From an uncultured Nitrososphaerota archaeon (GTDB taxonomy: Archaea > Thermoproteota > Nitrososphaeria > Nitrososphaerales > Gagatemarchaeaceae): 64,000 nucleotides of DNA. The position numbers and the translations under genes are program-made. How positions within the stretch are numbered: the stretch's first letter is position 1; every line of letters begins with the position of its first letter. Location of the stretch: positions 64,001 to 128,000 of the forward strand of contig CAWISW010000002.1 in NCBI GenBank assembly GCA_963838925.1, written 5' to 3'. Under the pieces are notes generated by a model. That model saw only the letters and a program-made list of their open reading frames with translations, ran no database searches and was not told the DNA's origin. Below, piece by piece: positions 28,484 to 46,886 of the stretch.

Positions 28484-28561
28484 TGGCGGGCCCGGTGGGA
28501 TTTGAACCCTCGGCCTAACGCTTAGGAGGCGTTCGCTCTGTCCATACTGAGCTACGGGCCC
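28484..28561 (-). tRNA. tRNA-Arg(CCT), intronless, CCA encoded
   Basis: GGGCCCG acceptor stem, GCTC/GAGC D-stem, AACGC-CT CCT AA-GCGTT anticodon arm, TTCAAAT T-loop, 3' GCCA. Confidence 0.95.
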
Positions 28562-33195: not shown

Positions 33196-34287
33196 CTACT
33201 GGATGAGTAGGCTTTCAGCAAGTTTGAGAAATTCGGCCTTGTCAGTTTTCAGTTCCCTCAATAACAGTTTCCATCTTTCGTGACGAAGCTCGGAATCTAT
33301 CGGTTCGAAAATAAGCTTCACCTTGGCCTTCTTCTCGGGATGCCTTAGTCTTAGCATCTTCAGCAGACTGAGAATCTCTTCTACCCTCCACAACTGGAGT
33401 TGACGAACGCCGTTCGAGTCTGGCTTGCCAAGATGGGCATGAAATCCAAGCATAGATAGCGACGATTGAACCCAGACCAGGAGTTCAAGGTTCTTATTAG
33501 TAAATGACATTCGAGGTTCGAACGCCCTATCGGCTCTTAGCCACAGTCTTCCTTCCGCGTCAAAAAGGCCTGCAAGATATCCTAACACAAATTCGACGCT
33601 CTCTACTCCAGCGGGAACTGTCAGTCTTCCTTCCAATAAGAAGCCAAAGCTCGCATCAAGTTCTGATTCAAAGGACCATTCGTATCCGGCCATTGTGGAG
33701 AGTCTTGGTCTTACCCTAACAGGACCATGCGGAACCATTAGTGATGTCAGGAGGTCAATCATTGCAGGGTGCGTCGAAGCCGTTCTTACTCTAATTGCTC
33801 TACCATGGCGCTTGACATTGAGATCACCGCGAGCTAGCCCCAGCAGGTACCCCTTCTGATAGGCGTCTCCTTCAAACGGAACCTTTTCGAACTTCCTCAC
33901 AGATTTGATTTGCGCTTCGACTTTGTCTCTCAGCGGTATTCCTCGTTTACGAAGATGGTTGAAGACAGAGACCGGGCTCACGACCTCTCCGGCGATTTGT
34001 TTCAGCGACTCTCCATTCTTGTACTTGGTTACCCAGACATCGACCATATCATCTGTGATTTTCCTGATATGCGCAGCGGGGTCGCGCCTTCTGATTCCGT
34101 TCCTCTTCAGATGATGCAATATCGTCGACTCGGCCGTCTTCTGACTCGCATACCTCAAGTCGTAGATCTTCGCAATCTTCGCAGCCGAGAGCTTCTGCTC
34201 AAGGTACAAGCGCTGGAGGTCGGCCTTTGTGGGCGGCCACTCAAGATTGGGTGAGTTGCTTGTCTTGGCGCCCTCTCCGTCAGTCAT
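33196..34287 (-). mobile_element. Free-standing LAGLIDADG homing endonuclease with N-terminal HTH motifs
   Basis: YLLGLARGD and YLAGLFDAEG motifs, FTNKN. Noticeably more AT-rich than the flanking genes; convergent with nuoD. Confidence 0.85.
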
Positions 34288-34390
34288 TCATTCGTTATTC
34301 TTGCAGACTATATGAACGGCAACGCTCGAAACCGGAATCGCCACTATTCGCACGTCGGTGGGAATTTGTCCGAAAATCCCCGGTAATACA

Positions 34391-34398
34391 TATATAAG
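34391..34398 (+). promoter_or_regulatory. TATA box of the R15P isomerase-prs operon
   Basis: TATATAAG ending about 25 bp before GTG 34424, consistent with a leaderless transcript. Confidence 0.6.
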
Positions 34399-34423
34399 CT
34401 CCTACGAAGGCGAAACGGTTCAC

Positions 34424-35416
34424 GTGGAAACCCTAAAGGACGGAAAAGAAGAATTTCCAAAGGTCTCTGTGGACGAAGCGTATGACAACCTAAAGTCGAT
34501 GCGCGTCCATGGCGCGGGGCGGATCGCGAGGTATGCGGCCCAAGCGCTGAGGGACTATGCAAAGGACGCCAAGGCGAAGACCTCCAGAGAGTACTGGGGA
34601 ATCGTCCTGAAGGCGGGGGAGAAGCTCAGGTCTGCAAGGCCCACTGCGGTCTCCCTTCCCAACGGCGTAAACTACGTCCTGTACGGCGGGAGGACCTCCT
34701 TCGAGTCCGGCGGGTCAGTGGAAGACATCAGGAACGCCACAGTTAACACCGCGAACGACTTCATCACGTCCAGCATCGAAGCCGTCAAGGAGATAGGAGA
34801 GATCGGGGCGAGGAGGGTCAAGAACGGAGACATCATAATCACACACTGCAACAGCGAGGCTGCCATGAGCATCCTGAAGAAGGCCTACGACATGGGGAAG
34901 GGCATCAAGGTCTACTGCGACGAGACCAGGCCCAAGTTCCAGGGGCACAAGACGGCAGCGACGCTCGCGGCATACGGCATCGACACCACGCTGATCTGCG
35001 ACTCTGCGTGCAGGGTGACCATGTCCGGCGCAGACAGGGCGATAGTCGGATGCGACGCCATCTCAGTCAACGGAGCCTTGGTGAACAAGATCGGCACCTC
35101 GCAGGTCGCCACGATCGCCCACGAAGCGAGGGTAAACTTCTTGGTGGCCGCTGAAACTTATAAGCTCGATTTCAAGACCTTGACGGGAGAATTGGTCGAC
35201 ATCGAGGAGCGCGACTACACGGAGATCGCCTCAAAGGAATGGATGACCCACAACCCGAAGGTAAAGTTCAGCAACCCAGTGTTCGACGTCACTCCGCCCG
35301 AGTACATCGACTTTTACGTAACGGAGAAGGGCATCGTCCCGCCCGGCGCGATATTCAGCCTGATGAAGGAGCTCTACCAGTACACAGAGGGAGCTCAGGC
35401 GAAGCCCGCCCATTAA
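34424..35416 (+). CDS. Ribose-1,5-bisphosphate isomerase (eIF2B-like family)
   Basis: M.VHGAGRIAR, RPTAVSLPN, THCNS (catalytic Cys), ETRPKFQG, GCDAI (catalytic Asp), NKIGT, NPVFDVTP. Adjacent to RuBisCO. Confidence 0.88.
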   Translation: METLKDGKEEFPKVSVDEAYDNLKSMRVHGAGRIARYAAQALRDYAKDAKAKTSREYWGIVLKAGEKLRSARPTAVSLPNGVNYVLYGGRTSFESGGSVEDIRNATVNTANDFITSSIEAVKEIGEIGARRVKNGDIIITHCNSEAAMSILKKAYDMGKGIKVYCDETRPKFQGHKTAATLAAYGIDTTLICDSACRVTMSGADRAIVGCDAISVNGALVNKIGTSQVATIAHEARVNFLVAAETYKLDFKTLTGELVDIEERDYTEIASKEWMTHNPKVKFSNPVFDVTPPEYIDFYVTEKGIVPPGAIFSLMKELYQYTEGAQAKPAH

Positions 35417-35432
35417 TCGGAGAACGAGTAAG

Positions 35433-36326
35433 ATGATAATCTTTGGCGGTTCTGCAGGCGAGACTCTAGCAGTCAGAGTGTCGCTCCTTACGGGAGCTAA
35501 GCTCGGCAAGGTCAAGAGGCAGAGGTTCCCAGACGGGGAGCAATACCTGAAGATCGAGGAGGACATCAAGGGGCAGGACATCGTATTCATCCACCCACTT
35601 GGAGGCAGGCCGGACGAGCTCATCATGGAGTACCTGCTCACGATGGACGCTTTTAAGAGCGCGAGCCCAAAGTCGATAAGCGTCGTCATCCCGTACTTCG
35701 CCTATGCCAGACAAGACGCTAGGTTCCACCCCGGAGAGCCCCTGAGCTTCCATCTGGTGGCCAAGCTGCTAGAGTCCGCAGGCCCGAGCAGGATATTCAC
35801 GATAGACGTACACCTCCAGAGGGTCCCGTCCCTGAAAGAGGTCTTCAAGGTCCCGGCCTTCAACCTGACGGCCGTCCCGTACATCGCGGAGTACATCAAC
35901 AGGATATACCAGCCGAAGAACCCGATCATCATCGGACCGGACGACGAGTCGGAGCAATGGGCGAAGGTCGCGGCAGCCAAGATCAAGACCGACTACGCGA
36001 TCCTCCAGAAGACCAGGTTCTCCTCAACGGAGGTCAAGGTCAAGGTCAAGGGCGGCGAGAGCGTCAACGTCAAGGGGAGGGACGCGATAATCATCGACGA
36101 CATCATCAGCACGGGCAACACCATCGTGGAGGCCGCGAACCTGGTGAAGAAGGCAGGCGCGCGCAAGATCTACGTAGGGTGCACGCACCCCGTCCTCAGC
36201 CTCAACGCGCTCCCGCTGATGTACAGCAACAACATAGAGGGCGTGGTAGGCACCGACACCTTCGCGGGGCCCATAAGCTTCGTGACCGTGGCGCCCGTGA
36301 TAGCCGAAGCGCTGAAGAAGAAGTAG
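35433..36326 (+). CDS. prs: Ribose-phosphate pyrophosphokinase (PRPP synthase, archaeal type)
   Basis: FPDGE, PYFAYARQD, D.H, GPD, IIDDIISTG.T, THPV. Confidence 0.92.
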   Translation: MIIFGGSAGETLAVRVSLLTGAKLGKVKRQRFPDGEQYLKIEEDIKGQDIVFIHPLGGRPDELIMEYLLTMDAFKSASPKSISVVIPYFAYARQDARFHPGEPLSFHLVAKLLESAGPSRIFTIDVHLQRVPSLKEVFKVPAFNLTAVPYIAEYINRIYQPKNPIIIGPDDESEQWAKVAAAKIKTDYAILQKTRFSSTEVKVKVKGGESVNVKGRDAIIIDDIISTGNTIVEAANLVKKAGARKIYVGCTHPVLSLNALPLMYSNNIEGVVGTDTFAGPISFVTVAPVIAEALKKK

Positions 36327-36528
36327 AGTCGGACAACCGACCCTGGATTCTCACCGCTTCGTACGGCCATGCATGGCTATGGGCACCTCTAGGGACCTTG
36401 CGGTAGCTCGATTCCTATAGATCTCTCGCCGAAGCGAGCGAGAGGAGACGCGGCCGCAGAAGTGACTTTGTGAATAATGAGGAGGGGGCCCGATTAGGGC
36501 CTGGCCGAGCCTTGGTAACTCTGCCGAC

Positions 36529-36705
36529 TCAGAAGTTCGTCGCTGGGGCGCCGGAGTTCTTCAGGTAGTGGAGCTCGTAAGGCTTCCCGGCCGTTCCCAC
36601 GCAACACGTGCACCCGTAGTCCGCGCACTGCAGGGAGTTGTCGTGGGGGCATGACCCGCACGAGCAGAAGATGTCGCCCTTGATGTGGTTCTTCACTATG
36701 AGCAC
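36529..36705 (-). CDS. 58-aa Cys-rich, probably metal-binding protein directly downstream of RuBisCO (absent from the ORF track)
   Basis: GTG 5 nt after the rbcL TAG. Reads MLIVKNHIKGDIFCSCGSCPHDNSLQCADYGCTCCVGTAGKPYELHYLKNSGAPATNF*, with strongly GC3-biased codons like the host genes. Confidence 0.75.
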   Translation of the reverse strand: MLIVKNHIKGDIFCSCGSCPHDNSLQCADYGCTCCVGTAGKPYELHYLKNSGAPATNF

Positions 36706-36710
36706 CCCTT

Positions 36711-38138
36711 CTACTCCGACCGGAACATGTGCCTGTAGTCGCTCTCCTTCTTTCCGAGCTCAGGCACTGCGGTCATCGCGGAGGCGACCGCGTACTTTTG
36801 CCCGAAGAACTGGAGAGCCGCCTGCAGCTCGGGGTGGTCCTTGGCGTAGTCGTCGACAGGGATCTTCTTCATGTAGGCATCCACTGCCTGTCTCGCAGCG
36901 GTGGCGCCCGCCTTTGTCCCCCATGGGTGCCCGTGTACGCTCCCGCCGTTCTGGAGCGAGATGTCGAGCCCCATCAGGTCGAGCGAGTAGTGGTAGTTCT
37001 GCGGAGTGAGGCCGCCTGAAGAGACGCCAAACATCGGCTTGATGTGCTCCATCGGCCCCTGGATCGCGTCCATCACCTCTGGGATCTCTACGAACTTTAT
37101 CGCGTCTCCCAGCTTCCCTCTCGCAGTGCCTACGTGGATCAAGTCTCCGCCAGCTACCCTGCTAAGCCCCGCGATCACCTTGAAGCTGATCCCGTGCCTC
37201 GGGTGGCGCGTGAGCGCCGCGTGCGACGCCCTGTGGAGGTGGATTGGGACGTTAATGCTCGGGTCCTCCGCGAGCACCCTCAGCGAGGGATACCAGCTGC
37301 ACATGATGTTGAGCATCAGGCCCCTTGCGCCGTGCGCGATCATCTTGTCCGCTACCTCGAGGGTCCTCTCGGAGTCGACCGTGACCTCAGGCGCGTACAT
37401 GTAGTCGCCCTCAGGGTGGGCGCCCTCCGACTTGGCCTTGTCGAGAGCCTCGTAGACCTTCGCGACGCGGTCTAGGAGGGGGGAGCACCACTGGTTGTGG
37501 TACGTCTCGTCGTCCTTGAACGTGTCAACGCCTCCCAACGCGGCGTCGTAGAACTGCTGAGCGGCTCCCTGGTCGGTGACGCCCATCTTCGGCTTGATCG
37601 TGATGCCGACGTGAGGCCGTCTGCTCTTCTTGGTGCCGACTATGTCCCTCAGCCCTTCGACGCCGAACTTCGGCCCCTTGAAGAGCTTCAGGACGTCCTT
37701 TGGCAGCGTGAAATCTATCCATTTGCAGTTCGGAATCGGAGTGAACCCCATCCAGTTCCCAGTGACGAAGGTGAACAGGTCGGGGATCCCCCTGTTGTCC
37801 ATGTCCAGAAGGTAGGTCGGGAAGGCCACCTTGACCCACCCCGAGTGCTTCATAGAGCCTGAGGGGTCTTCATACTTCCACGAGTAGAGCTTTGCGGCGG
37901 TCTTGGTAGAGAGGTCGGTTGCCGTGGAGACATCGGTGAAAGTCCCGACCGACTGCTCTGCAGCGATGATGACTCCCGCCTGGTCGATCGTGACCCTCGG
38001 GTCGCACGTGATGAAGAAAGTCGCCAGGACGTTCTTGTCGACGTCGACCTTCTCGGGAGTGGTGGAGAACAGGTCCCCCCTGTCGTGCTCGACGCTTGGG
38101 GCGCTCCATCTCTTCTCAGTCATCGCTTCTGTTGTCAT
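36711..38138 (-). CDS. rbcL: RuBisCO large subunit, form III-type
   Basis: AEQSVGT, GN, IKPK, DTFKDDE, HLHRASH, IHVGT..GKL, SSGG, GGSVHGHP: all canonical carboxylase active-site residues. No small subunit gene in the window. Confidence 0.93.
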   Translation of the reverse strand: MTTEAMTEKRWSAPSVEHDRGDLFSTTPEKVDVDKNVLATFFITCDPRVTIDQAGVIIAAEQSVGTFTDVSTATDLSTKTAAKLYSWKYEDPSGSMKHSGWVKVAFPTYLLDMDNRGIPDLFTFVTGNWMGFTPIPNCKWIDFTLPKDVLKLFKGPKFGVEGLRDIVGTKKSRRPHVGITIKPKMGVTDQGAAQQFYDAALGGVDTFKDDETYHNQWCSPLLDRVAKVYEALDKAKSEGAHPEGDYMYAPEVTVDSERTLEVADKMIAHGARGLMLNIMCSWYPSLRVLAEDPSINVPIHLHRASHAALTRHPRHGISFKVIAGLSRVAGGDLIHVGTARGKLGDAIKFVEIPEVMDAIQGPMEHIKPMFGVSSGGLTPQNYHYSLDLMGLDISLQNGGSVHGHPWGTKAGATAARQAVDAYMKKIPVDDYAKDHPELQAALQFFGQKYAVASAMTAVPELGKKESDYRHMFRSE

Positions 38139-38334
38139 GTGAACGAATTTTTTGGCGCCTCGGAGGTTATTTATGTTTTATCCGTTGCGTGGCGATTCGT
38201 AAGACGGTCTCGACGACAGGAGTCGAATCCTCGGAGGCCGTCCTCGAATTTGTCAACGAATTTTGGGCCGCGGTCCTCTCTAGGCATGATTCCGCCTTCG
38301 TTAAGCTTAAAACGGGGCCGCATTTTGGCGCCTC

Positions 38335-39381
38335 GTGGCTTCGGGCTTGGCGAGTCTTTCGTCGGACGGCTTGACCGGACTCCTCAAGAAATTCCAAGGA
38401 AAGCGGCTACTCGTCGTCGGTGATTTTCTGGTCAGCAGGTTTGTCGAGGTCTCAGCGAGGAAGCTAGCCCGCGAGGCGCCCGTTCCCGCAGGCGACTACG
38501 TGGGAGAGACGCTCCTCCCCGGCGGAGCCGCGAACCTCGCCAACGAGGTGGCATCCCTGGGCGGGTCGGTCTCTGTGATAGGGGCGGTGGGCGAAGACAA
38601 CTACGGGGTCTGGCTGAAGGAGGACCTCGCGAGGAACGGCGTCGGCACCGACGGGATAGTGGTCGACAAGACGAGACCAACCTCGCTCAGGACGTGGATC
38701 ATGGTAAACCGCCTGCACTACCTTCGCATAGACCAGGAGGTAAGGAAGGAGGTGCAGCTGTCGATCACAAAGTCCTTCGCTGCCTCCGCCGAGGCAAAGA
38801 TCCCAAACGTCGACACAGTGGTGTTCTCAGACTACGACAGGGGCGTGGTCACATCCTCGCTCATAAGCTCGGTCGTGGCCGCGGCTAGGAAGGCCGGCAA
38901 GATAGTCGTCGCTCAGCCCAAGGACAGGCACTACATGGACTTCAACGGGGTGACCTACGTGAAATCGAACCTGGGGGAAGCCACGCACGCGACCCAGATG
39001 GCGATGGTCAACGAGACCAGCCTGAGGAACATGGGTGTAAACCTTATGGGAAGGCTCGACTGCAAGGGGATCGTGATCACCCGCGGAGAAGAGGGCATGA
39101 CGGTCTTCGATCGCGAGCAGATAACCAGCTTCCCCCTCGCCTTCGGAAGGAAGAGCTTCTTCAACAAGGTCGGTGTGAGAGACGTCATGACGGGCGTGTT
39201 CTCCCTCGCGGTCGCAGCAGGCGGCTCGATAACCGAGGCGGCGTGCCTGAGCAACATCGCAGGGACCGTGAGGAGCGAGAAGCCGAGGACGTCCACTTTG
39301 ACGATCCAGGACCTGGAGAAGCGGTTGGGGTCGATGGACGACTTCCTGAACCGCATCTCCCAGATGCCGGTGAGGCGTTAA
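38335..39381 (+). CDS. PfkB-family sugar-phosphate kinase, HldE/RfaE kinase-domain-like
   Basis: LLVVGD, REAPVP, PGGAANLA, GAVGED, LRIDQE, FSDYDRG, ITRGEEG. The anion-hole motif is divergent (VGVRD instead of GAGD). Confidence 0.8.
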   Translation: MASGLASLSSDGLTGLLKKFQGKRLLVVGDFLVSRFVEVSARKLAREAPVPAGDYVGETLLPGGAANLANEVASLGGSVSVIGAVGEDNYGVWLKEDLARNGVGTDGIVVDKTRPTSLRTWIMVNRLHYLRIDQEVRKEVQLSITKSFAASAEAKIPNVDTVVFSDYDRGVVTSSLISSVVAAARKAGKIVVAQPKDRHYMDFNGVTYVKSNLGEATHATQMAMVNETSLRNMGVNLMGRLDCKGIVITRGEEGMTVFDREQITSFPLAFGRKSFFNKVGVRDVMTGVFSLAVAAGGSITEAACLSNIAGTVRSEKPRTSTLTIQDLEKRLGSMDDFLNRISQMPVRR

Positions 39382-39384
39382 GAT

Positions 39385-40209
39385 ATGGGCATGGCAACTT
39401 CGCAGGAGATAACGAGGCTGCAGGACATCTCGAGGAACACCAGGAAGATCATCCTCGAGACGCTGGCTGAGGCCGGGTCGGGCCACCCCGGAGGCTCGCT
39501 ATCAGCGGTCGAGCTCCTCGTCACGCTCTACTTCTACAAGCTGAGGCACGACCCCAAGAACCCGAAGTGGGCTGACAGGGACCGCTTCATTCTCAGCAAG
39601 GGGCACGGCGCCCCGCTGCTCTACTCGATCCTCGCCCAGTCCGGATACTTCCCGTTGTCAGAGCTAAAGTCCCTGAGGAAGCTTGGCGCGCTCCTCCAGG
39701 GCCACCCTGACATGGACATACCCGGCGTCGAGATGCCGGCGGGCTCGGAGGGCATCGGACTCTCGGTCGGCGTAGGCCAGGCTCTCGCCGCGAGGCTCGA
39801 CGGAAGGCCCACCAGGACGTACGTCCTGATGGGGGACGGAGAGCAAGGGGAGGGCGAGGTCTGGGAGGCTGCGATGTCGGCGTCCAAGTTCAAGCTAGAC
39901 AACCTCGTCGGCATGATCGACAGGAACGGAATCCAGCAGGACGGGCTCACCGAGCAGATCATGCCGCTCGAGCCGCTCGCAGCCAAGTGGCGCGCCTTCA
40001 ACTGGAACGTCATCGAGGTTGACGGCTACGACTACCTCCAGCTGATCGAGGCCTTCGACACGGCAGAGATGACGAAGAACAGGCCCACCATGATAATCGC
40101 CCACACCGTCAAGGGCAAGGGCATCTCCTTCATGGAGTGGTCACCGATGTATCACGGCACCGCTCCCACGAAGGAGAAGATGGAAGACATCTACAAGGAG
40201 CTAAAGTAG
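39385..40209 (+). CDS. Transketolase, N-terminal (TPP-binding) subunit
   Basis: SGHPGGSLS, RDRFILSKGH, LQGHP, GDGE..EG..WEA, DRN, TVKGKG. Confidence 0.95.
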   Translation: MGMATSQEITRLQDISRNTRKIILETLAEAGSGHPGGSLSAVELLVTLYFYKLRHDPKNPKWADRDRFILSKGHGAPLLYSILAQSGYFPLSELKSLRKLGALLQGHPDMDIPGVEMPAGSEGIGLSVGVGQALAARLDGRPTRTYVLMGDGEQGEGEVWEAAMSASKFKLDNLVGMIDRNGIQQDGLTEQIMPLEPLAAKWRAFNWNVIEVDGYDYLQLIEAFDTAEMTKNRPTMIIAHTVKGKGISFMEWSPMYHGTAPTKEKMEDIYKELK

Positions 40210-40215
40210 GAAGGG

Positions 40216-40944
40216 ATGATGGTGGAGAAGACGATGCCGCTCGCGGAAATCAAGAGAAAGATCAAGATCGCCCCATCGATACTCGGCGGGGACCAGGCAA
40301 ACTTCGCGGCGGGGCTCGACATCGCGGTGAAGGGAGGGGCGGACCAGGTCCACCTCGACGTCATCGACGGCCACTTCGCCCCAAACATCACGTTCGGCCC
40401 GGGGACGGTGAAGGCCCTGAGGAAGAGGACCGACATGAAGTTCGACACCCACCTGATGATAGACGAGCCCGAGAAGTTCGTCGACAAGTTCCTGGACGCA
40501 GGGTCAGACCTGTTCTGCTTCCACGCAGAAGCGCTTACGGGGGAGCGCTTCGACGCCCTCTACTCGAAAATCCACGCGCAAGGTAAGGTGATAGGGCTGG
40601 CCTTGAAGCCCGCCACCGAGATGCCCGCGTGGGTGGAGCAGAGGCTGGACAAGCTCGACACCCTGTGCGTCATGACGGTGAACCCCGGATTCAGCGGTCA
40701 GACGATGATCATGTCGGTCATGCCCAAGCTGGAGAAGATCACGCAGATGCTAAACGACAAGGGTCTACCGATAGACATCGAGATCGACGGCGGAGTGGAG
40801 CTCGAGACGTTGGAGCACGTAGTCCGCCGTGGGGGCAACGTCCTTGTGGCGGGCGCTGGCGTGTACTACAAGCCCGACCCGATCAAAGCGGTCGGGATAC
40901 TCCGCGAGAGGGCAAAGCAGGCGGTAGCAGCGGGGGCAGCTTGA
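40216..40944 (+). CDS. rpe: Ribulose-phosphate 3-epimerase
   Basis: IAPSIL, HLDVIDGHFAPNITFG, DTHLM, MTVNPGFSGQ, IEIDGGV, LVAG. Confidence 0.96.
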   Translation: MMVEKTMPLAEIKRKIKIAPSILGGDQANFAAGLDIAVKGGADQVHLDVIDGHFAPNITFGPGTVKALRKRTDMKFDTHLMIDEPEKFVDKFLDAGSDLFCFHAEALTGERFDALYSKIHAQGKVIGLALKPATEMPAWVEQRLDKLDTLCVMTVNPGFSGQTMIMSVMPKLEKITQMLNDKGLPIDIEIDGGVELETLEHVVRRGGNVLVAGAGVYYKPDPIKAVGILRERAKQAVAAGAA

Positions 40945-40945
40945 G

Positions 40946-41905
40946 ATGCTAGAGAAAATGGGTGCAATGCGGACTGCCTACGGCGAGGCTCTCGTCGAGC
41001 TCGGCGCGAGCAACCCGCGCATCGTGGTCCTCGGCGCCGACACCACAGAATCAATGAAGTCGGGCATGTTCGGGGCCAAGTATCCTGACCGGTTCTTCAA
41101 CCTCGGAATAGCCGAGCAGAACCTCGTGGGGGTCTCCGCTGGGCTCGCCTTCGGGGGAAAGATCGCTTACGCAGGCACTTACGCCATCTTCGTCCCCGGA
41201 AAGTGCGTCGACCAGATACGCAACATGCTCTGCTACGCCGACCTGGACGTCAAGATAGTATGCTCACACGCTGGAATCACAGTCGGGCCTGACGGGGGCT
41301 CGCACGAGCAGGTCGAGGACATCGCGCTCATGCGGTGCGTGCCTCACATGAGGGTCGTCGTTCCCGCAGACGCCGTCGCGGTCAAGGGCATAGTCAAGGC
41401 CATCGCAGACATCCCGGGCCCCTTCTACGTCAGGATAACGAGGGGAGTCGTCAAGGGCTCCAACACCCCCATCGTCTACGAGAACGGCTTCGAGTACAAG
41501 CTCGGCAAGGCCAACGTGATCCGCGAAGGCAACGACGTCACGCTATTCGGGTGCGGGATAATGCTCCCGGAGGCGCTGAGGGCGGCGGAGTCCCTCGCCA
41601 CGAAGGGAGTCCAAGCCAGCGTCATCGACATCCACACCGTGAAGCCGATCGACGCGGAGACGATAATCAAGTACGCGAAGAAGACCGGCTGCGCCGTCAG
41701 CGCGGAGGAGCACAACGTGATGGGAGGGATGGGCTCAGCCGTCGCCGAGGTGCTGAGCGACCAATACCCGATACCGCTCAAGCGGGTTGGGGTCATGGAC
41801 ACGTTCGGCGAGAGCGGAGAGGCGCAGGAGCTCCTCAACAAGTACGGCCTGACCTCCGCCCACATCGAGGAAGCGGCGCGCCAAGCCATCGCGATGAAAC
41901 GATAG
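40946..41905 (+). CDS. Transketolase, C-terminal subunit
   Basis: GIAEQN, DQIRN, GPDGGSH, TVKPID, EEH...GG.GSAV. Confidence 0.95.
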   Translation: MLEKMGAMRTAYGEALVELGASNPRIVVLGADTTESMKSGMFGAKYPDRFFNLGIAEQNLVGVSAGLAFGGKIAYAGTYAIFVPGKCVDQIRNMLCYADLDVKIVCSHAGITVGPDGGSHEQVEDIALMRCVPHMRVVVPADAVAVKGIVKAIADIPGPFYVRITRGVVKGSNTPIVYENGFEYKLGKANVIREGNDVTLFGCGIMLPEALRAAESLATKGVQASVIDIHTVKPIDAETIIKYAKKTGCAVSAEEHNVMGGMGSAVAEVLSDQYPIPLKRVGVMDTFGESGEAQELLNKYGLTSAHIEEAARQAIAMKR

Positions 41906-41930
41906 CTTTATTAGAAAAATCTCGGGAAGC

Positions 41931-42614
41931 GTGCTCGAATTGAAGTTCTATCTTGATACCGCGAACCTAGCTTCAATCAAGAAGTACCACTCGATGGGGC
42001 TGGTCGACGGAATCACCACGAATCCCTCGCTGATCGTGAAGGAGGGCGGGGACTTCGAACAGACCATCAAGGCCATCGCCAAGGAGGTCTATCCGCATCC
42101 GGTGAGCGCCGAAGTCATCGCCACCGACTACGAAGGGATGGTGGCGGAAGGAAAGCGCAACAAAGCCTGGGCAGAGAACGTGGTCGTCAAGATTCCCATG
42201 ATACCCGAGGGAATGAGAGCGACGAAGACCCTCAGCTCGATGGGGATACCAATCAACGTCACGCTGATCTTCTCGGCCGTCCAGGGACTGATCGCGATGA
42301 AGGCAGGAGCGTCGTACATCAGTCCGTTCATCGGCCGCCTGGACGACATCGGCCAAGACGGAATGGGCCTCATCAAGGACCTGGTCGAGATAAGGAACAA
42401 CCAGAACTACAAGTTCAAGACTGAGATACTGGTGGCGAGCATCAGGCACCCCATCCACGTGCTACAGGCCGCGAAGCTCGGCGCCGACATCGGCACGATG
42501 CCCGCCGAAGTCATGGAGAAGATGTTCTCGCATCCTCTCACCGACAGCGGGTTGAAGCGCTTCCTCGACGACTGGAACAAGGCGAAGAAGGAAAAGCCCT
42601 CGCTGACCGTCTGA
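41931..42614 (+). CDS. tal: Transaldolase (short TalC/FSA-type family)
   Basis: DTA, GITTNPSL, Schiff-base VKIP, NVTLIFS, SPFIGRLDD. Glu (SAEV) and Phe (SPF) occupy the positions that distinguish transaldolase from F6P aldolase. Confidence 0.9.
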   Translation: MLELKFYLDTANLASIKKYHSMGLVDGITTNPSLIVKEGGDFEQTIKAIAKEVYPHPVSAEVIATDYEGMVAEGKRNKAWAENVVVKIPMIPEGMRATKTLSSMGIPINVTLIFSAVQGLIAMKAGASYISPFIGRLDDIGQDGMGLIKDLVEIRNNQNYKFKTEILVASIRHPIHVLQAAKLGADIGTMPAEVMEKMFSHPLTDSGLKRFLDDWNKAKKEKPSLTV

Positions 42615-42700: not shown

Positions 42701-43459
42701 TCACGGCGCGGCGGCGTCCGCACTAGAAGATCGCAAGTTTCCCGCGAGATAGACCGCCACGTAGATCGACGACAGGATCACGAGCGAGGAGAAGAGAGCT
42801 CTGTGCGAATAGTCGAACGATGACGTGAAAATGTACACGCTCTTGTATCCCACGTATTCGAGGAAGACGAATCTCAACCCAAATCCTAAGGTGCTGGCTA
42901 GGAGGAATACGTCTGCTTTCATCTTCAGCGTACCGGCCGCGAGGGAACTGACGCTATAGAAGAACGGGATGAAAGTGGATATGAAGATTGAGAAGTGGCC
43001 GTGCTCGGCTATCCATCCGTCTGACTGTTGGATGTCATTTTCAGAAATGTGGACGTAGCGCAGCCCTTTCAAGAGCAGCGGTCTGGGGACAAGCCTGCCC
43101 GCCGCGTACTCTATCGGAAATAGGGCGGCCGCCAGGCACACAAGAAACGTCGTATAGGGATTGAATATCCCTGTCGCCGACAGAAAGCCATAGGCCGGAA
43201 CGAGGACGTAATCGGGGACTGGCGAGATCCAGATGCTCATGAACATGCCCAGGTACCCTGCTATCGAAAATGGCCACGGCAGGCTCTCCTGGTTGAGACT
43301 ATAGGACGACACATTGACAAAATTGAAATCTGCGTTCAGCAACGCCAAGACGCTCACCGATAGTGCGAGGATCGAAGTTACGAAGAGATAGTGCCGGTAT
43401 TTGCCCCACCGTGCGAGCCCGTCCAGTCCTGACCCAATGGCGGCATTCGAAATCGGCAC
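42701..43459 (-). CDS. DedA/VTT-family membrane protein
   Basis: SPVPDYVLVPAYG, W...HG..SIF.STFIP....SSL.AG..KM. Confidence 0.75.
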   Translation of the reverse strand: MPISNAAIGSGLDGLARWGKYRHYLFVTSILALSVSVLALLNADFNFVNVSSYSLNQESLPWPFSIAGYLGMFMSIWISPVPDYVLVPAYGFLSATGIFNPYTTFLVCLAAALFPIEYAAGRLVPRPLLLKGLRYVHISENDIQQSDGWIAEHGHFSIFISTFIPFFYSVSSLAAGTLKMKADVFLLASTLGFGLRFVFLEYVGYKSVYIFTSSFDYSHRALFSSLVILSSIYVAVYLAGNLRSSSADAAAP

Positions 43460-43545: not shown

Positions 43546-44016
43546 CTATTTCGAGATGACGCTCTTGACGTCTGCGAGGTAGAGGCTGAGCCTGCTGACC
43601 TCGTACCTCAGCATCTCAAGGTCCATTGTGCTGTAGTAGTTCTGGTTGTTCCTCACGTAGCTCGAGATGGCCCCGTATCTGTCGTAGAAGTGCTTCGGGG
43701 CAAGCTCGGGCCACCTCGACTCTATCTCCCTCAGCGCGAGCCTCCTGTCGTAGCTCCCCTTTGGGACCTTGTGCAGCAGGTGCTCTACCAGGATGTCTGT
43801 CACCTGTGATAGCACTATCCATGACTTCTCGGCCGCCTCCCTGAACTGGAGGACGCCGCCGGGGCCGCCCCTAGCGTAAGTGAAAGTCCTACCCTCGTAG
43901 GATGTGTTCTCCGCCGCCTTCAGCAAGGCCGGGAGCTCGCTCATGAGCTTCTCGGAGTTCTTCCAAAGCTCCGGCATACTCACGGCGTAGTTCTGAGTGT
44001 TTAGCTTCTTGCTCAC
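43546..44016 (-). CDS. Hypothetical helical protein
   Basis: Coding-like ORF. GTG 44016 lies about 25 bp from a TATA-like box; the track start is 44112. Confidence 0.55.
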   Translation of the reverse strand: MSKKLNTQNYAVSMPELWKNSEKLMSELPALLKAAENTSYEGRTFTYARGGPGGVLQFREAAEKSWIVLSQVTDILVEHLLHKVPKGSYDRRLALREIESRWPELAPKHFYDRYGAISSYVRNNQNYYSTMDLEMLRYEVSRLSLYLADVKSVISK

Positions 44017-44146
44017 GAGAAACCTCGGTCCTTTGACGACATTTAAGAATATTGCGACGAACGAAAGGCCGCCCCGCCGACGGCTGACGAAAGGGCCGAC
44101 CGCCGCTAGCATTTAAAGCGCCAAGCCTCGGGAAGGGCGCGAAGAA

Positions 44147-44758
44147 ATGCAGACGCCGACAGGTGCGCAAGGCAAGCCAGTCGCCGACTCCATCCCGAGG
44201 TTCCTTTCGTCCCTGGGCGGGCTCCACGTCGAAGCGCGCGTCGTCAGGAACGGGCAGGAGACGACCGAGGCCCTGCGAGGGATCCTCTCGAAATCGGGCT
44301 GCAAGTCGGTCGTCGTGGCGGGGATTCCAGCCCGCTACTCGGCGGCCGTGAAGGCCGCCCTCGCCGGGGTCAAGGCCTATTTCGTGGACGACCTCCAGAA
44401 GCTCCCACAGAACGAGGCCGTCGGGGTCCTCGCGGCCGCCGACGCCGGGATCACGTGGGCGGTGAACGGAGTCGCCCTCGAAGGCGCGATGCTGGAGGTG
44501 GTCTATGACGACGCCGCGAAGCTGGCCTCCTCTCTCCCAATCGTCCACATCGCGCTACTCGAGTCCTCGAGCGTTCTGCCCGCCCTCGTGGACGCAATGC
44601 CACTCGTCGGGGGCATAGTAAGGGACGCGCCTCCGGGCCGGAAGCCGATCATCTCATTCATCTCCGGCCCGAGCAAGACGGGGGACATCGAGATGAGGCT
44701 GCTGTACGGCGTCCACGGCCCGCACACGGTCCACGCGGTCGTCCTCGACTGGCATTGA
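44147..44758 (+). CDS. lutC: LutC/YkgG (LUD domain) protein
   Basis: SSLP.VHIA, FISGPSKTGDIEM.L.YGVHGP. Confidence 0.88.
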   Translation: MQTPTGAQGKPVADSIPRFLSSLGGLHVEARVVRNGQETTEALRGILSKSGCKSVVVAGIPARYSAAVKAALAGVKAYFVDDLQKLPQNEAVGVLAAADAGITWAVNGVALEGAMLEVVYDDAAKLASSLPIVHIALLESSSVLPALVDAMPLVGGIVRDAPPGRKPIISFISGPSKTGDIEMRLLYGVHGPHTVHAVVLDWH

Positions 44759-44771
44759 ATGGAGATCACCG

Positions 44772-46886
44772 ATGACCAACAACCGCCCCGCCCTCCTCGC
44801 GAAGCTCAGGGCAGCCCTGAAGGACAGGGAGTCCTCTGACAAGTTCTGGGACGCCATGACCAAGGCGAGGGCGAACAGGACGGCCCTTCTAGAGAGGGAG
44901 AAGCTCGACATGCAAGCCATCAAGCAGTCCAACAAGGCCATCAAGACGGCGGCCGTGGCCGACAGGACCCTGGTCGACGAGTTCGCGGAAAACGTCCGTA
45001 AGAACGGCGGGAGGGTGTTCATGGCCAAGACAGGGGGCGACGCCATCCGGTACGTCGAGGGACTCTCGAAGAGGGTGGGTGCGAAGCTGATAGTGAAGGC
45101 AAAGTCGCTCACTTCGGACGAGATAGAGTTCACCCACGAGCTCGAGAAGGTCGGCGTCCGCTCGGTCGAGACCGACCTGGGGGAGCTCATCATCCAGCTC
45201 GCCGGGGAGACGCCCGTACACCTCGTCATGCCCGCCGCACACAAGTCGGTGAACGAGATCGCCCAGCTGGTCTCGGGTGCCGTCGGGAAGGACGTGCCGC
45301 CGGAGGACCAGGCGATCCTCGGGGCAGTGAGGGCATACCTGAGGGGGCTCTTCCTCACAGCCGACATAGGAGTCTCTGGGGCAAACATCGGGGTCGCCGA
45401 GACGGGCTCAATCGTCATCGAGACGAACGAAGGGAATGGGAGGCTGGTCACGAGCGTCCCGAAGATACACCTAGTGATAATCGGGATGGAGAAGATCGTC
45501 CCAAAGTGGTCGGACGCCACGTACCTGGTGAAGGGGCACAGCGCGAGCGCGACCGGCCAGAACATGACCGTCTACGTCTCGGTGATAACCCAGCACGGCC
45601 CTCTCGCGGGCTCGACGGAGGGGAGGGAGTACCACGTCATCATCCTCGACAACGGCAGGAGCAAGATGAGAGACGACCCGTGGTTCTCGGACGCGCTGAA
45701 CTGCATCAGGTGCGGCGCGTGCATGAACGTTTGCCCAACTTACGGCGTCGCCGGTGGCCACACCTTCGGCTACATCTACCCGGGGCCCATCGGCATCCCA
45801 TGGACGGCCGAGGTGCACGGCCTGGACAAGGCGACCTTCGCGCACCTCTGCGTTTCCTGCGGCCTCTGCAAGGAGATCTGCCCCGTCGACATCAACATCC
45901 CCATGATGATAGCCAAGGTCAAGGAGGAGGAGGTCCACGAGAACGGGCAGCTCGCGGTCAACGACTTCTTCATGTCGTCGGAGTCGCTCGCCAAGCTCGC
46001 GAGCGCGACCGCGCCGGCCTCCAACTGGCTCCTTCGCAGGGCGGCCACCAGGGCGGTGATGGAGTCCCTCGCTGGTGTCGACAGGAGGCGGACCCTCCCC
46101 TCATTCGCCAGGAAGAGGCTCAGGGCGAGGATATCGCCCCTGGGGACGGGGACCGGGGACGCAGGAAGGGTGGTGTTCTTCCCAGACATCTACGCCGACT
46201 TCAACGACCCGGAGCTAGGCGTCAGGGCGGTGAAGATCCTGCTCGCGCTCGGCTACAAGGTCGAGGTGCCGGGCCTGAGGTGGAGCGGGATGCCTTACAT
46301 CTCGTACGGGGACATCTCCAAGGCGACCGCCGTGGCGAAGGGCAACCTCGAGGCGCTGAAGAAGTACCTGGATCAGGGGTACTCCGTGGTGTCCACTGAG
46401 CCGACCGCCGTCTACATGCTCAGGGAGGTCTACCCGACCCTCGTGCCCGGCGAGCTCGCCGAGAAGGCGCGCACCATGAGCTTCCCGTTCTTCGGATTCA
46501 TCCAGGGCGGGCTCGGCGGCCTCGGGTTGAAGCCTGCCTTCCCCGCCGACGAGGCGATCGGGTTCCACATACCGTGCCACGACAGGTCCGTCTCCAGCGG
46601 CAAGCCCGCGATAGCATTCCTTGGGGCGGCAGGGTACAAGGTGCAGGTCGTGGAGAACGGCACCTGCTGCGGCATGGCCGGGACGTTCGGCATGAAGCAC
46701 GGCGACCTGGGCTACAACCTCTCTATGGAGGTTGGAGACCACCTCTTCCGCCTGCTGAAAGAGAGCGGACGAAAGCTGGTCGCGACCGAGAGCAGCGTCT
46801 GCTCCATGCAGATCGCCGACGGCGCCAGCCTCAGGGTAGTCCACCCGCTCCACGCTGTCGAAGAGGTCTCGCCCCAACGCCGGTGA
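44772..46886 (+). CDS. lutB: LutB/YkgF (LUD + 2x4Fe-4S) fused to CCG (GlcF/LutA-like) domains; 2-hydroxyacid dehydrogenase Fe-S subunit
   Basis: ETDLGE.I.QL, TNEGN, CIRCGAC.NVCP, CVSCGLC..ICP, HIPCH, CCGMAG.FG. Confidence 0.88.
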   Translation: MTNNRPALLAKLRAALKDRESSDKFWDAMTKARANRTALLEREKLDMQAIKQSNKAIKTAAVADRTLVDEFAENVRKNGGRVFMAKTGGDAIRYVEGLSKRVGAKLIVKAKSLTSDEIEFTHELEKVGVRSVETDLGELIIQLAGETPVHLVMPAAHKSVNEIAQLVSGAVGKDVPPEDQAILGAVRAYLRGLFLTADIGVSGANIGVAETGSIVIETNEGNGRLVTSVPKIHLVIIGMEKIVPKWSDATYLVKGHSASATGQNMTVYVSVITQHGPLAGSTEGREYHVIILDNGRSKMRDDPWFSDALNCIRCGACMNVCPTYGVAGGHTFGYIYPGPIGIPWTAEVHGLDKATFAHLCVSCGLCKEICPVDINIPMMIAKVKEEEVHENGQLAVNDFFMSSESLAKLASATAPASNWLLRRAATRAVMESLAGVDRRRTLPSFARKRLRARISPLGTGTGDAGRVVFFPDIYADFNDPELGVRAVKILLALGYKVEVPGLRWSGMPYISYGDISKATAVAKGNLEALKKYLDQGYSVVSTEPTAVYMLREVYPTLVPGELAEKARTMSFPFFGFIQGGLGGLGLKPAFPADEAIGFHIPCHDRSVSSGKPAIAFLGAAGYKVQVVENGTCCGMAGTFGMKHGDLGYNLSMEVGDHLFRLLKESGRKLVATESSVCSMQIADGASLRVVHPLHAVEEVSPQRR

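Follow-up and report, generated by a model that had tools for sequence, protein, structure and literature searches.

A ribose-phosphate diphosphokinase co-inherited with RuBisCO suggests a PRPP-fed, phosphoribulokinase-independent supply of ribulose-1,5-bisphosphate in a soil Nitrososphaerales archaeon

A RuBisCO locus was analysed in a 64,000-nucleotide stretch of DNA (the window; C2:64001-128000) of the genome G000, an archaeon of the Gagatemarchaeaceae whose assembly comprises 1.84 Mb in 3 contigs and is 87.18% complete. The gene for a divergent form III RuBisCO (rbcL) lies there with e2b2, encoding a ribose-1,5-bisphosphate (R15P) isomerase, with an extra gene for ribose-phosphate diphosphokinase (prs), with a non-oxidative pentose phosphate pathway (PPP) operon and with a small gene here called orfX. 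The best-supported reading of this locus is that ribulose-1,5-bisphosphate (RuBP) would be supplied from pentose phosphates via phosphoribosyl pyrophosphate (PRPP), using neither phosphoribulokinase (PRK) nor AMP phosphorylase, in a CO2-incorporating shunt from pentose to 3-phosphoglycerate (3-PGA) of a heterotroph or mixotroph. We regard this reading as somewhat favoured, and a pathway of this kind has already been proposed in print for marine relatives.

The locus was compared among 61 genomes including the host, 23 of the same genus, 37 of the same family and 24 from other families (the host is counted within the 23 and the 37, and excluded where 22 same-genus or 36 same-family genomes are given). 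It was observed that rbcL (at least 79% identity), e2b2 (at least 80%), the clustered prs (at least 71%) and orfX co-occurred in 9/9 genomes of the host's RuBisCO clade, namely G000, G006, G008, G009, G012, G014, G018, G020 and G049. This clade was found in 7 of the 22 congeners and in G049; the other 52 genomes were without orthologues of the module, save for orfX in G019, which is 59% complete, and a weak partial match to orfX in G039. Outside the clade, all genomes held only prs paralogues of 26–39% identity. Because a second prs lies elsewhere in the host genome (C3:573858-574784, TIGR01251 244 bits), the clustered gene was taken to be an extra copy. The other IF-2B-family gene of the host (C3:698478) was MtnA. 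The clustered Prs aligned over its full length with Prs of M. jannaschii (1u9y, 203 bits), and both its catalytic loop and its ribose-phosphate loop were kept (KTR loop, DDIISTG). Judged by its distribution, it is a dedicated, co-inherited paralogue of the RuBisCO module. As this extra Prs is inherited with rbcL and e2b2, PRPP is favoured as the entry to R15P. The initial annotation had proposed that pentose 5-phosphate is activated at C1 either via PRPP or by the PfkB kinase beside rbcL; the co-inherited prs favoured the former branch, whereas the latter was disfavoured by a kinase present irrespective of RuBisCO.

The pairing of prs with RuBisCO was also seen outside the clade. When 14 loci of the host's RuBisCO clade and 66 loci of other archaeal RuBisCOs were compared, prs-e2b2-rbcL formed an operon in 4 of the 66 as well, Methanomethylicota among them, suggesting that Prs is an old partner of the RuBisCO pathway. 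One such Methanomethylicota locus (L059) continued with a true AMP phosphorylase (694 bits), and this older arrangement could reach R15P through AMP.

In the proposed route, transketolase (Tkt), transaldolase (Tal), ribulose-phosphate 3-epimerase (Rpe) and RpiA would make or interconvert pentose phosphates to give ribose-5-phosphate (R5P), which the dedicated Prs would convert to PRPP. PRPP would then yield R15P in a further, putative step, the e2b2 product would isomerise R15P to RuBP, and RuBisCO would carboxylate RuBP to two 3-PGA. Gluconeogenesis and the PPP could in principle close this shunt into a cycle. The analysis establishes which genes are present, how they are co-inherited and their synteny; it is the direction of flux, the place of PRPP as an intermediate and the physiological role that we infer here.

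The genes of the window were assigned from a list of open reading frames (ORFs) with Pfam and NCBIfam profile scores. The locus contained the following features:

34358..35416, + strand: e2b2, R15P isomerase (TIGR00511 376.6 bits, cut-off 314.1)
35433..36326, + strand: Prs, ribose-phosphate diphosphokinase, extra paralogue (TIGR01251 282.9 bits, cut-off 113)
36711..38138, - strand: rbcL, large chain (475 aa) of a divergent form III RuBisCO (PF00016 169 bits, PF02788 57 bits)
38139..38334, no strand: spacer between rbcL and pfkB, holding a 13-base direct repeat in two exact copies
38335..39381, + strand: HldA-like PfkB sugar(-phosphate) kinase, heading the PPP operon (RfaE domain I 224 bits)
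39385..40209, + strand: tktN, transketolase N-terminal half (PF00456 185 bits)
40216..40944, + strand: rpe, ribulose-phosphate 3-epimerase (PF00834 197.8 bits; NF004076 201.5 bits, cut-off 165)
40946..41905, + strand: tktC, transketolase C-terminal half (PF02779, PF02780)
41931..42614, + strand: tal, small transaldolase of the Tal/FSA family (TIGR00875 282 bits, cut-off 246)
43546..44112, - strand: orfX, PaREP1/HEPN-like protein of 188 aa (conserved core 43546-43998)

All eight genes named in the initial annotation, from e2b2 to tal, were recovered at these positions by ORFs, Pfam and NCBIfam; a possible alternative start of e2b2 lies at 34424, in-frame within the ORF 34358-35416. The GC content of the window was ~0.57–0.65, compatible with the 54–62% reported for the Gagatemarchaeaceae (Sheridan 2023). 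No amoA was found in the host or in the congener G009, and the search was judged to be working because 4 other genomes of the same order gave matches. The host is a non-ammonia-oxidising soil archaeon of the Nitrososphaerales.

Alignment of the RuBisCO with that of P. horikoshii (2cwx) showed that TIKPKMG, GGVDTFKDDE, HLHRASH, IHVGTARGK, SSGG and NGGSVHGHP were kept, i.e. the motif classes KPK, KDDE with the carbamylated Lys, HRA, H..GT..GK, SGG and GG..GHP; the sole motif change was Phe in place of the Trp after GT. These motifs presumably carry the Lys/Asp/Glu/His/Arg/Ser/Gly catalytic set, the roles and numbering being taken from the spinach convention. The catalytic residues are intact as far as the alignment tells, and the enzyme is predicted to be active. 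Among the forms scored, form III ranked first (form II 177 bits, MtnW 193 bits), and identity to solved structures was ~36–40%. The closest named records were from Nitrososphaerales/Thaumarchaeota soil metagenome-assembled genomes (MAGs), at 90–92% identity, and identity between the host's RuBisCO and that of MAGs from marine heterotrophic Thaumarchaeota was 72–77%. In a FastTree phylogeny, built without form I, II and IV references, the host's clade was monophyletic (support 1.0), its stem branch measuring 1.06; its sister grouping with the prs-e2b2-rbcL trio of Methanomethylicota had a support of 0.73 and was not used as evidence. The marine sister sequences have been placed as divergent III-a RuBisCO (Aylward & Santoro, PMC7300363). 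The genome-wide search gave a single RuBisCO gene in the host. The earlier description of an intact form III-type RuBisCO therefore stood for the catalytic motifs and the best-scoring form, but the protein scored below the curated type III cut-off.

The enzymes that supply RuBP or R15P in known pathways were then considered. PRK (PF00485) gave no match among 24 scored candidates in the host and was found in 0/23 genomes of the genus; the control search matched 11 of 14 known genomes. Six weak PF00485 matches (at most 26 bits) arose in the set of 61 genomes, all of them outside the genus and in RuBisCO-less genomes. AMP phosphorylase (TIGR03327) was not found in the host, where the sole match (33.6 bits, cut-off 535) was TrpD, nor in any of the 37 family genomes, and real ones were found among the 61 genomes only in G049 and G054. 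The absence of PRK and AMP phosphorylase, first noted in the window, thus extended to the 87%-complete host genome and to 7 independent RuBisCO-bearing congener assemblies, the search for phosphorylases leaving out nucleoside phosphorylases of the PNP/UDP family.

Next to rbcL, the PPP operon required a different interpretation from that in the initial annotation, where Tkt, Tal and Rpe were taken to regenerate pentose 5-phosphate for RuBisCO: a regeneration module specific to RuBisCO was not supported. PfkB orthologues were found in 19/22 same-genus, 30/36 same-family and 37/61 genomes overall (E<=1e-10), regardless of RuBisCO. Mapping by tblastn gave the order pfkB-tktN-rpe-tktC-(insert)-tal in 5 RuBisCO-less members of the family (G007, G010, G015, G030 and G027), and the same order was seen in G044 and G039, both of which are amoA-positive. 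Because RuBisCO-less relatives and ammonia oxidisers share the synteny of the operon, its PfkB kinase does not belong to the RuBisCO-linked genes. The genes pfkB-tktN-rpe-tktC-tal are the standard housekeeping non-oxidative PPP operon of the order, which the RuBisCO genes adjoin in one subclade only. As regards conservation of the cluster in related genomes, rbcL, e2b2, prs and orfX held together in 9/9, whereas the PPP operon extended to RuBisCO-less genomes.

The marine sister clade showed a differently built cluster, in the order pgk, prs, e2b2, rpe, full-length tkt, tal, SDR (NAD-dependent epimerase/dehydratase), rbcL and orfX. Nine loci of this type were available, of which 7 were from marine MAGs and 6 were complete over the stretch. 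The first gene, pgk, stands beside prs, and the PfkB kinase is not part of the cluster. The cluster transketolase was the genome's sole one in 5/5 marine-type genomes searched (4 marine MAGs and L031). Thus, in two lineages built differently, soil and marine-type, RuBisCO adjoins the only non-oxidative PPP genes of the organism, and PPP genes adjoin rbcL in 13/14 clade loci vs 1–2/66 loci of other archaeal RuBisCOs. This repeated adjacency in two gene-set builds provides moderate evidence for functional coupling of rbcL with the adjoining PPP genes, despite the housekeeping nature of the operon. The SDR, a protein of 316 aa, is encoded between tal and rbcL in L034 (8968-9918, +) and also in L162, L164 and L168; a homologue of 46–50% identity adjoins rbcL in G049-type contigs, and no close homologue was found in the host (best 25% identity).

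Several observations weighed against a PRPP-fed supply of RuBP. No enzyme for the conversion of PRPP to R15P was recognised; within the cluster orfX is the one candidate, and the 10 Nudix genes all lay outside it. The RuBisCO did not reach the type III equivalog cut-off of NCBIfam (TIGR03326 288.3 vs 497.45 bits). The clade is not free of AMP phosphorylase throughout, since this enzyme is retained in G049. Relative to the host, rbcL was inverted in G020 (L023), and in G049 rbcL-orfX lay ~875 kb from prs-e2b2, so the RuBisCO module is not rigid. Given the housekeeping role of the PPP operon, a chance insertion could have brought it next to rbcL. Public sequencing runs holding the locus comprised 3 DNA runs, all of one study, and 0 RNA runs.

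The initial annotation had gone further and proposed a Calvin-type cycle, in which reduction of 3-PGA gives triose phosphate, gluconeogenesis with Tkt, Tal, Rpe and Rpi restores the hexose and pentose phosphates and R5P is re-activated via PRPP, so that a complete PRK-independent autotrophic cycle would support growth by CO2 fixation. All arguments for the PRPP route apply to such a cycle too, pgk heads the marine cluster, cyclisation has been put forward in print for the marine clade (Reji & Francis, bioRxiv 10.1101/2019.12.22.886556), and rbcL with e2b2 has been read as 'carbon fixation' (Sheridan 2023, PMC10640624). The genes for Rpi, FBPase/aldolase, PGK and GAPDH had been expected elsewhere in the genome. 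This was borne out for rpiA (169 bits, cut-off 126) and a phosphorylating type II glyceraldehyde-3-phosphate dehydrogenase (GAPDH, 487 bits), but fructose-1,6-bisphosphate (FBP) aldolase/phosphatase was found in 0/37 family genomes vs 17/24 genomes of other families, and the remaining candidates, DhnA-type aldolase genes and a gene resembling IMPase/FBPase (225.7 bits, cut-off 264), stayed below curated cut-offs. Phosphoglycerate kinase (PGK) was not found in the host assembly. PGK-family genes were present in 7/7 RuBisCO-positive congeners, where G006, G008, G009, G014, G018 and G020 had only a divergent one (151–174 bits) and G012 also a canonical one; canonical PGK of ~340 bits occurred in most RuBisCO-less congeners. 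As the 19 kb around the PGK-like gene of G009 had no counterpart in the host by blastn and tblastn, an assembly gap could account for the missing PGK. NiFe hydrogenase was not found in the host and was patchy among congeners (3/7 RuBisCO-positive, 6/15 RuBisCO-negative), and CoxL-like genes occurred in 21/22 congeners regardless of RuBisCO, none at the form I cut-off. Since neither tracks RuBisCO, nothing found by these searches sets the RuBisCO-bearing genomes apart as lithoautotrophs. The route would moreover cost two ATP equivalents per RuBP, and the family has been described as organotrophic (Sheridan 2023). The closed autotrophic cycle was neither excluded nor supported by these data, net autotrophy was not indicated, and we regard a growth-supporting cycle as unlikely.

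Alternatively, the RuBisCO could serve classical nucleotide or nucleoside salvage, with R15P formed from nucleotides or from ribose-1-phosphate (R1P) by an unrecognised phosphorylase or kinase, and with Prs and the PPP genes as mere neighbours. Such a role would agree with e2b2 and rbcL being the core of the archaeal pathway that has been characterised, with the adjacency of e2b2 to rbcL in 32/66 loci of other archaeal RuBisCOs and with the AMP phosphorylase kept in G049. Archaeal PfkB-type R1P kinases are also known (Sato et al. 2022), and a pfkB adjoins rbcL here; its product, however, is HldA-like, gave 32 bits on the haloarchaeal ATP-R1P-kinase model (cut-off 330) and is also found in RuBisCO-less relatives. 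The absence of AMP phosphorylase throughout the family argues against salvage, which also leaves the dedicated extra prs of the 9/9 genomes unexplained, and by an argument taken from Sato et al. 2022 the full non-oxidative PPP already handles the ribose of nucleosides. Salvage as the source of RuBP is therefore considered improbable. Even less probable is that the HldA-like PfkB bypasses PRPP and makes R15P directly, by phosphorylating R5P at C1 or R1P at C5. The kinase abuts rbcL, and its nearest characterised family is heptose-7-phosphate kinase: in NCBIfam it matched RfaE domain I best (at 224 bits, short of the cut-off, 345), and its best PDB match was the heptose-7-phosphate kinase 4e84 (107 bits). 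Enzymes of this family transfer phosphate to the C1 (anomeric) hydroxyl of their sugar phosphate substrate. The GAGD motif reads GVRD in PfkB, so its Asp is kept, as is the NxxE motif. Direct formation of R15P is opposed by the orthologues in 30/36 family genomes and in amoA-positive ammonia-oxidising archaea (AOA) without e2b2 and rbcL, by the lack of the kinase in the marine cluster and, again, by a co-inherited prs that it leaves unexplained.

Two candidate functions of PfkB were discarded along the way. As a RuBisCO-specific C1 kinase it was rejected on its distribution in RuBisCO-less relatives and ammonia oxidisers, and as a canonical kinase of the ADP-heptose pathway it was unsupported, no GmhA-like SIS genes being found in the kinase-bearing, amoA-positive G039 and G044. 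GmhA-like SIS genes were found in 18/22 congeners at 93–113 bits, none above the cut-off of 209. In the host, the stretch C2:464753-466734 holds such a SIS isomerase gene (98 bits, sub-cut-off) directly upstream of a 431-aa ORF, the C-terminal half of which is a second transaldolase/FSA-like domain.

Besides the enzymes of the PRPP-fed route, the module includes orfX, which stood beside rbcL or at the cluster end in 13/14 clade loci and directly after rbcL in marine and G049-type clusters (L034 11383-11910). Among 49 metagenome loci with orfX, rbcL lay within the fetched stretch in 25; the other 24 contigs were too short to reach rbcL, and 22 of them had the LUD-orfX-tal order of the window while 2 had orfX alone. 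None of the 49 showed orfX in a different setting. The core of the protein comprised ~150 residues with 35 invariant positions in 11 sequences, including Arg, Tyr, Asn, Asp and Glu; among the invariant features were the YEGRTFTYARGGPGG hairpin (RGGPGG) and the motifs YDRY and RNNxxY.

The window orfX protein had no Pfam match, and a marine homologue matched PaREP1 with an E-value of 0.0015, below the cut-off. The AlphaFold2 model was a helical bundle (pLDDT 87.3, pTM 0.84) whose top Foldseek matches were HEPN proteins at E 0.03–0.2; against the PDB, no match at E<=0.001 was obtained, and the ESM Atlas assigned orfX to PaREP1/HEPN clusters (0.91). When 1.84 billion cluster representatives were searched with a profile, 48 matches reached E<=0.001, 4 of them E<=1e-30, the weak matches spanning the C-terminal two-thirds only. 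Of 10 matches scanned, 7 hit PaREP1, 6 of these above the cut-off. The Rx4-6H motif, which we take to define HEPN proteins, was not found in orfX, where RNNxxY stands in its place. The predicted RbcL-orfX complex scored 0.27 against a mark of 0.32, which counts neither for nor against binding, and a literature search combining PaREP1 with RuBisCO, the only one made on orfX, found no paper. These results indicated that orfX is a lineage-specific, RuBisCO-linked putative member of a superfamily known for nucleotide/RNA chemistry. As a replacement of AMP phosphorylase it was weakened by G049, which carries both. One could speculate that orfX is the enzyme, or an obligatory partner, for the step from PRPP to R15P, conceivably through a 1,2-cyclic phosphate arising from the kind of 2'-OH transphosphorylation that HEPN nucleases typically carry out. 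The module would then by itself form a branch that regenerates RuBP independently of PRK, and a true Calvin-type cycle could run in the organism; we hold this to be very unlikely. The protein nevertheless offers a concrete candidate for the PRPP to R15P step or for regulation.

Other features of the locus and its surroundings were as follows. The copies of the 13-base direct repeat in the rbcL-pfkB spacer (38150-38162 and 38323-38335) were the only two in the genome. The repeat was missing at 12/13 related loci and shared solely with the nearest metagenome relative; it is therefore local, and a shared, conserved operator was rejected. It is possibly a relic of the rearrangement by which the two gene sets came together. 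Upstream of e2b2, a 363-aa ORF with a LAGLIDADG_3 domain (33196-34287, -) keeps its place in RuBisCO-bearing relatives (42–65% identity) and has 4 paralogues elsewhere in the genome. Between tal and orfX, a gene for a VTT/DedA-family membrane protein (42701-43459, -) is inserted, which is shared with G012 and two metagenome contigs and missing from the remaining close relatives. A block of LUD-domain and LUD/4Fe-4S/CCG genes (LutC/LutB-like, lactate utilisation) followed by a class V aminotransferase gene, in the window at 44147-46886 (+), is conserved beside orfX in every close relative. The Rfam gathering scan of the whole window gave a tRNA (28487-28561) as its sole match and no riboswitch or other RNA. 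In L026 (G012 C7), pfkB and prs were each in two adjacent pieces, with one TGA inside pfkB; frameshifts or assembly errors are possible.

If the PRPP route works, RuBisCO would be fed from the ordinary pentose phosphate pool without PRK, CO2 incorporation would be open to widespread soil and deep-ocean heterotrophic archaea, and the route would be a natural template for PRK-free RuBisCO pathways. To the proposals in print, the present analysis adds that Prs is a dedicated, co-inherited paralogue and that the small protein orfX is linked to RuBisCO. It also adds that the PPP operon and PfkB are housekeeping, so that one argument for a dedicated cycle falls away, and that two lineages of independent organisation both have RuBisCO next to their only PPP genes, so that part of this argument is regained.

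Compared with known systems, the host shares RuBisCO, Tkt, Tal, Rpe, Rpi and GAPDH with the Calvin-Benson cycle, but differs in having no PRK, no PGK found in the assembly, and only sub-threshold candidates for FBPase and aldolase. A transaldolase variant of the Calvin-Benson cycle with form III RuBisCO is also known. In methanogens, the reductive hexulose-phosphate pathway (Kono et al. 2017, PMC5241800) likewise places a form III-type RuBisCO in archaeal carbon metabolism but is reported to depend on an archaeal PRK, which was not found in the host. In the AMP/pentose-bisphosphate pathway of Thermococcus kodakarensis (PMC9700705), an R15P isomerase feeds form III RuBisCO to give 3-PGA as proposed here; in contrast, the host has no AMP phosphorylase or recognisable R1P kinase and has an extra Prs instead. 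That pathway is thought to replace the non-oxidative PPP, and Sato et al. 2022 see the RuBisCO pathway as a substitute for a missing non-oxidative PPP, a view that does not apply to the host, which has this pathway in full. Other non-AOA Nitrososphaeria were reported in a 2025 preprint to pair form III-b RuBisCO with the AMP route.

The nearest published cases are those of soil and marine relatives. In Sheridan 2023, rbcL, e2b2 and prs were described as adjacent in 3 topsoil Gagatemarchaeaceae (Group I.1c) and missing from the rest of this organotrophic, non-AOA family with 54–62% GC, and rbcL and e2b2 were the genes read as carbon fixation. The three adjacent genes and their patchy presence in a non-AOA soil family agree with our results; the flanking PPP operon, the PfkB kinase and orfX were not mentioned in the portion seen, and the supplement may list them. 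For marine MAGs, Reji & Francis reported RuBisCO and R15P isomerase without AMP phosphorylase or PRK, noted co-localised genes, proposed that R5P is converted to PRPP and on to R15P abiotically or by a Nudix enzyme, and explicitly proposed cyclisation via the non-oxidative PPP and gluconeogenesis; the same PRPP route was drawn for marine Thaumarchaeota by Aylward & Santoro. The novelty of the PRK-independent scheme is reduced accordingly, as a PRPP-fed, possibly cyclic scheme and the gene adjacency are in print, and what remains is a further, tightly clustered example. The host shows the hallmark of the PRPP-fed pathway: its RuBisCO belongs to the clade in question, e2b2 and prs accompany it, and neither PRK nor AMP phosphorylase was found. 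With the marine system the host shares the RuBisCO clade at 72–77% identity, orfX, adjoining tkt, tal and rpe, and the proposal of a route through PRPP and R15P that could optionally be cyclic. It differs in that the marine cluster has a fused tkt, pgk and SDR and no PfkB, whereas the locus described here abuts the native split-transketolase operon headed by PfkB and belongs to a high-GC soil lineage.

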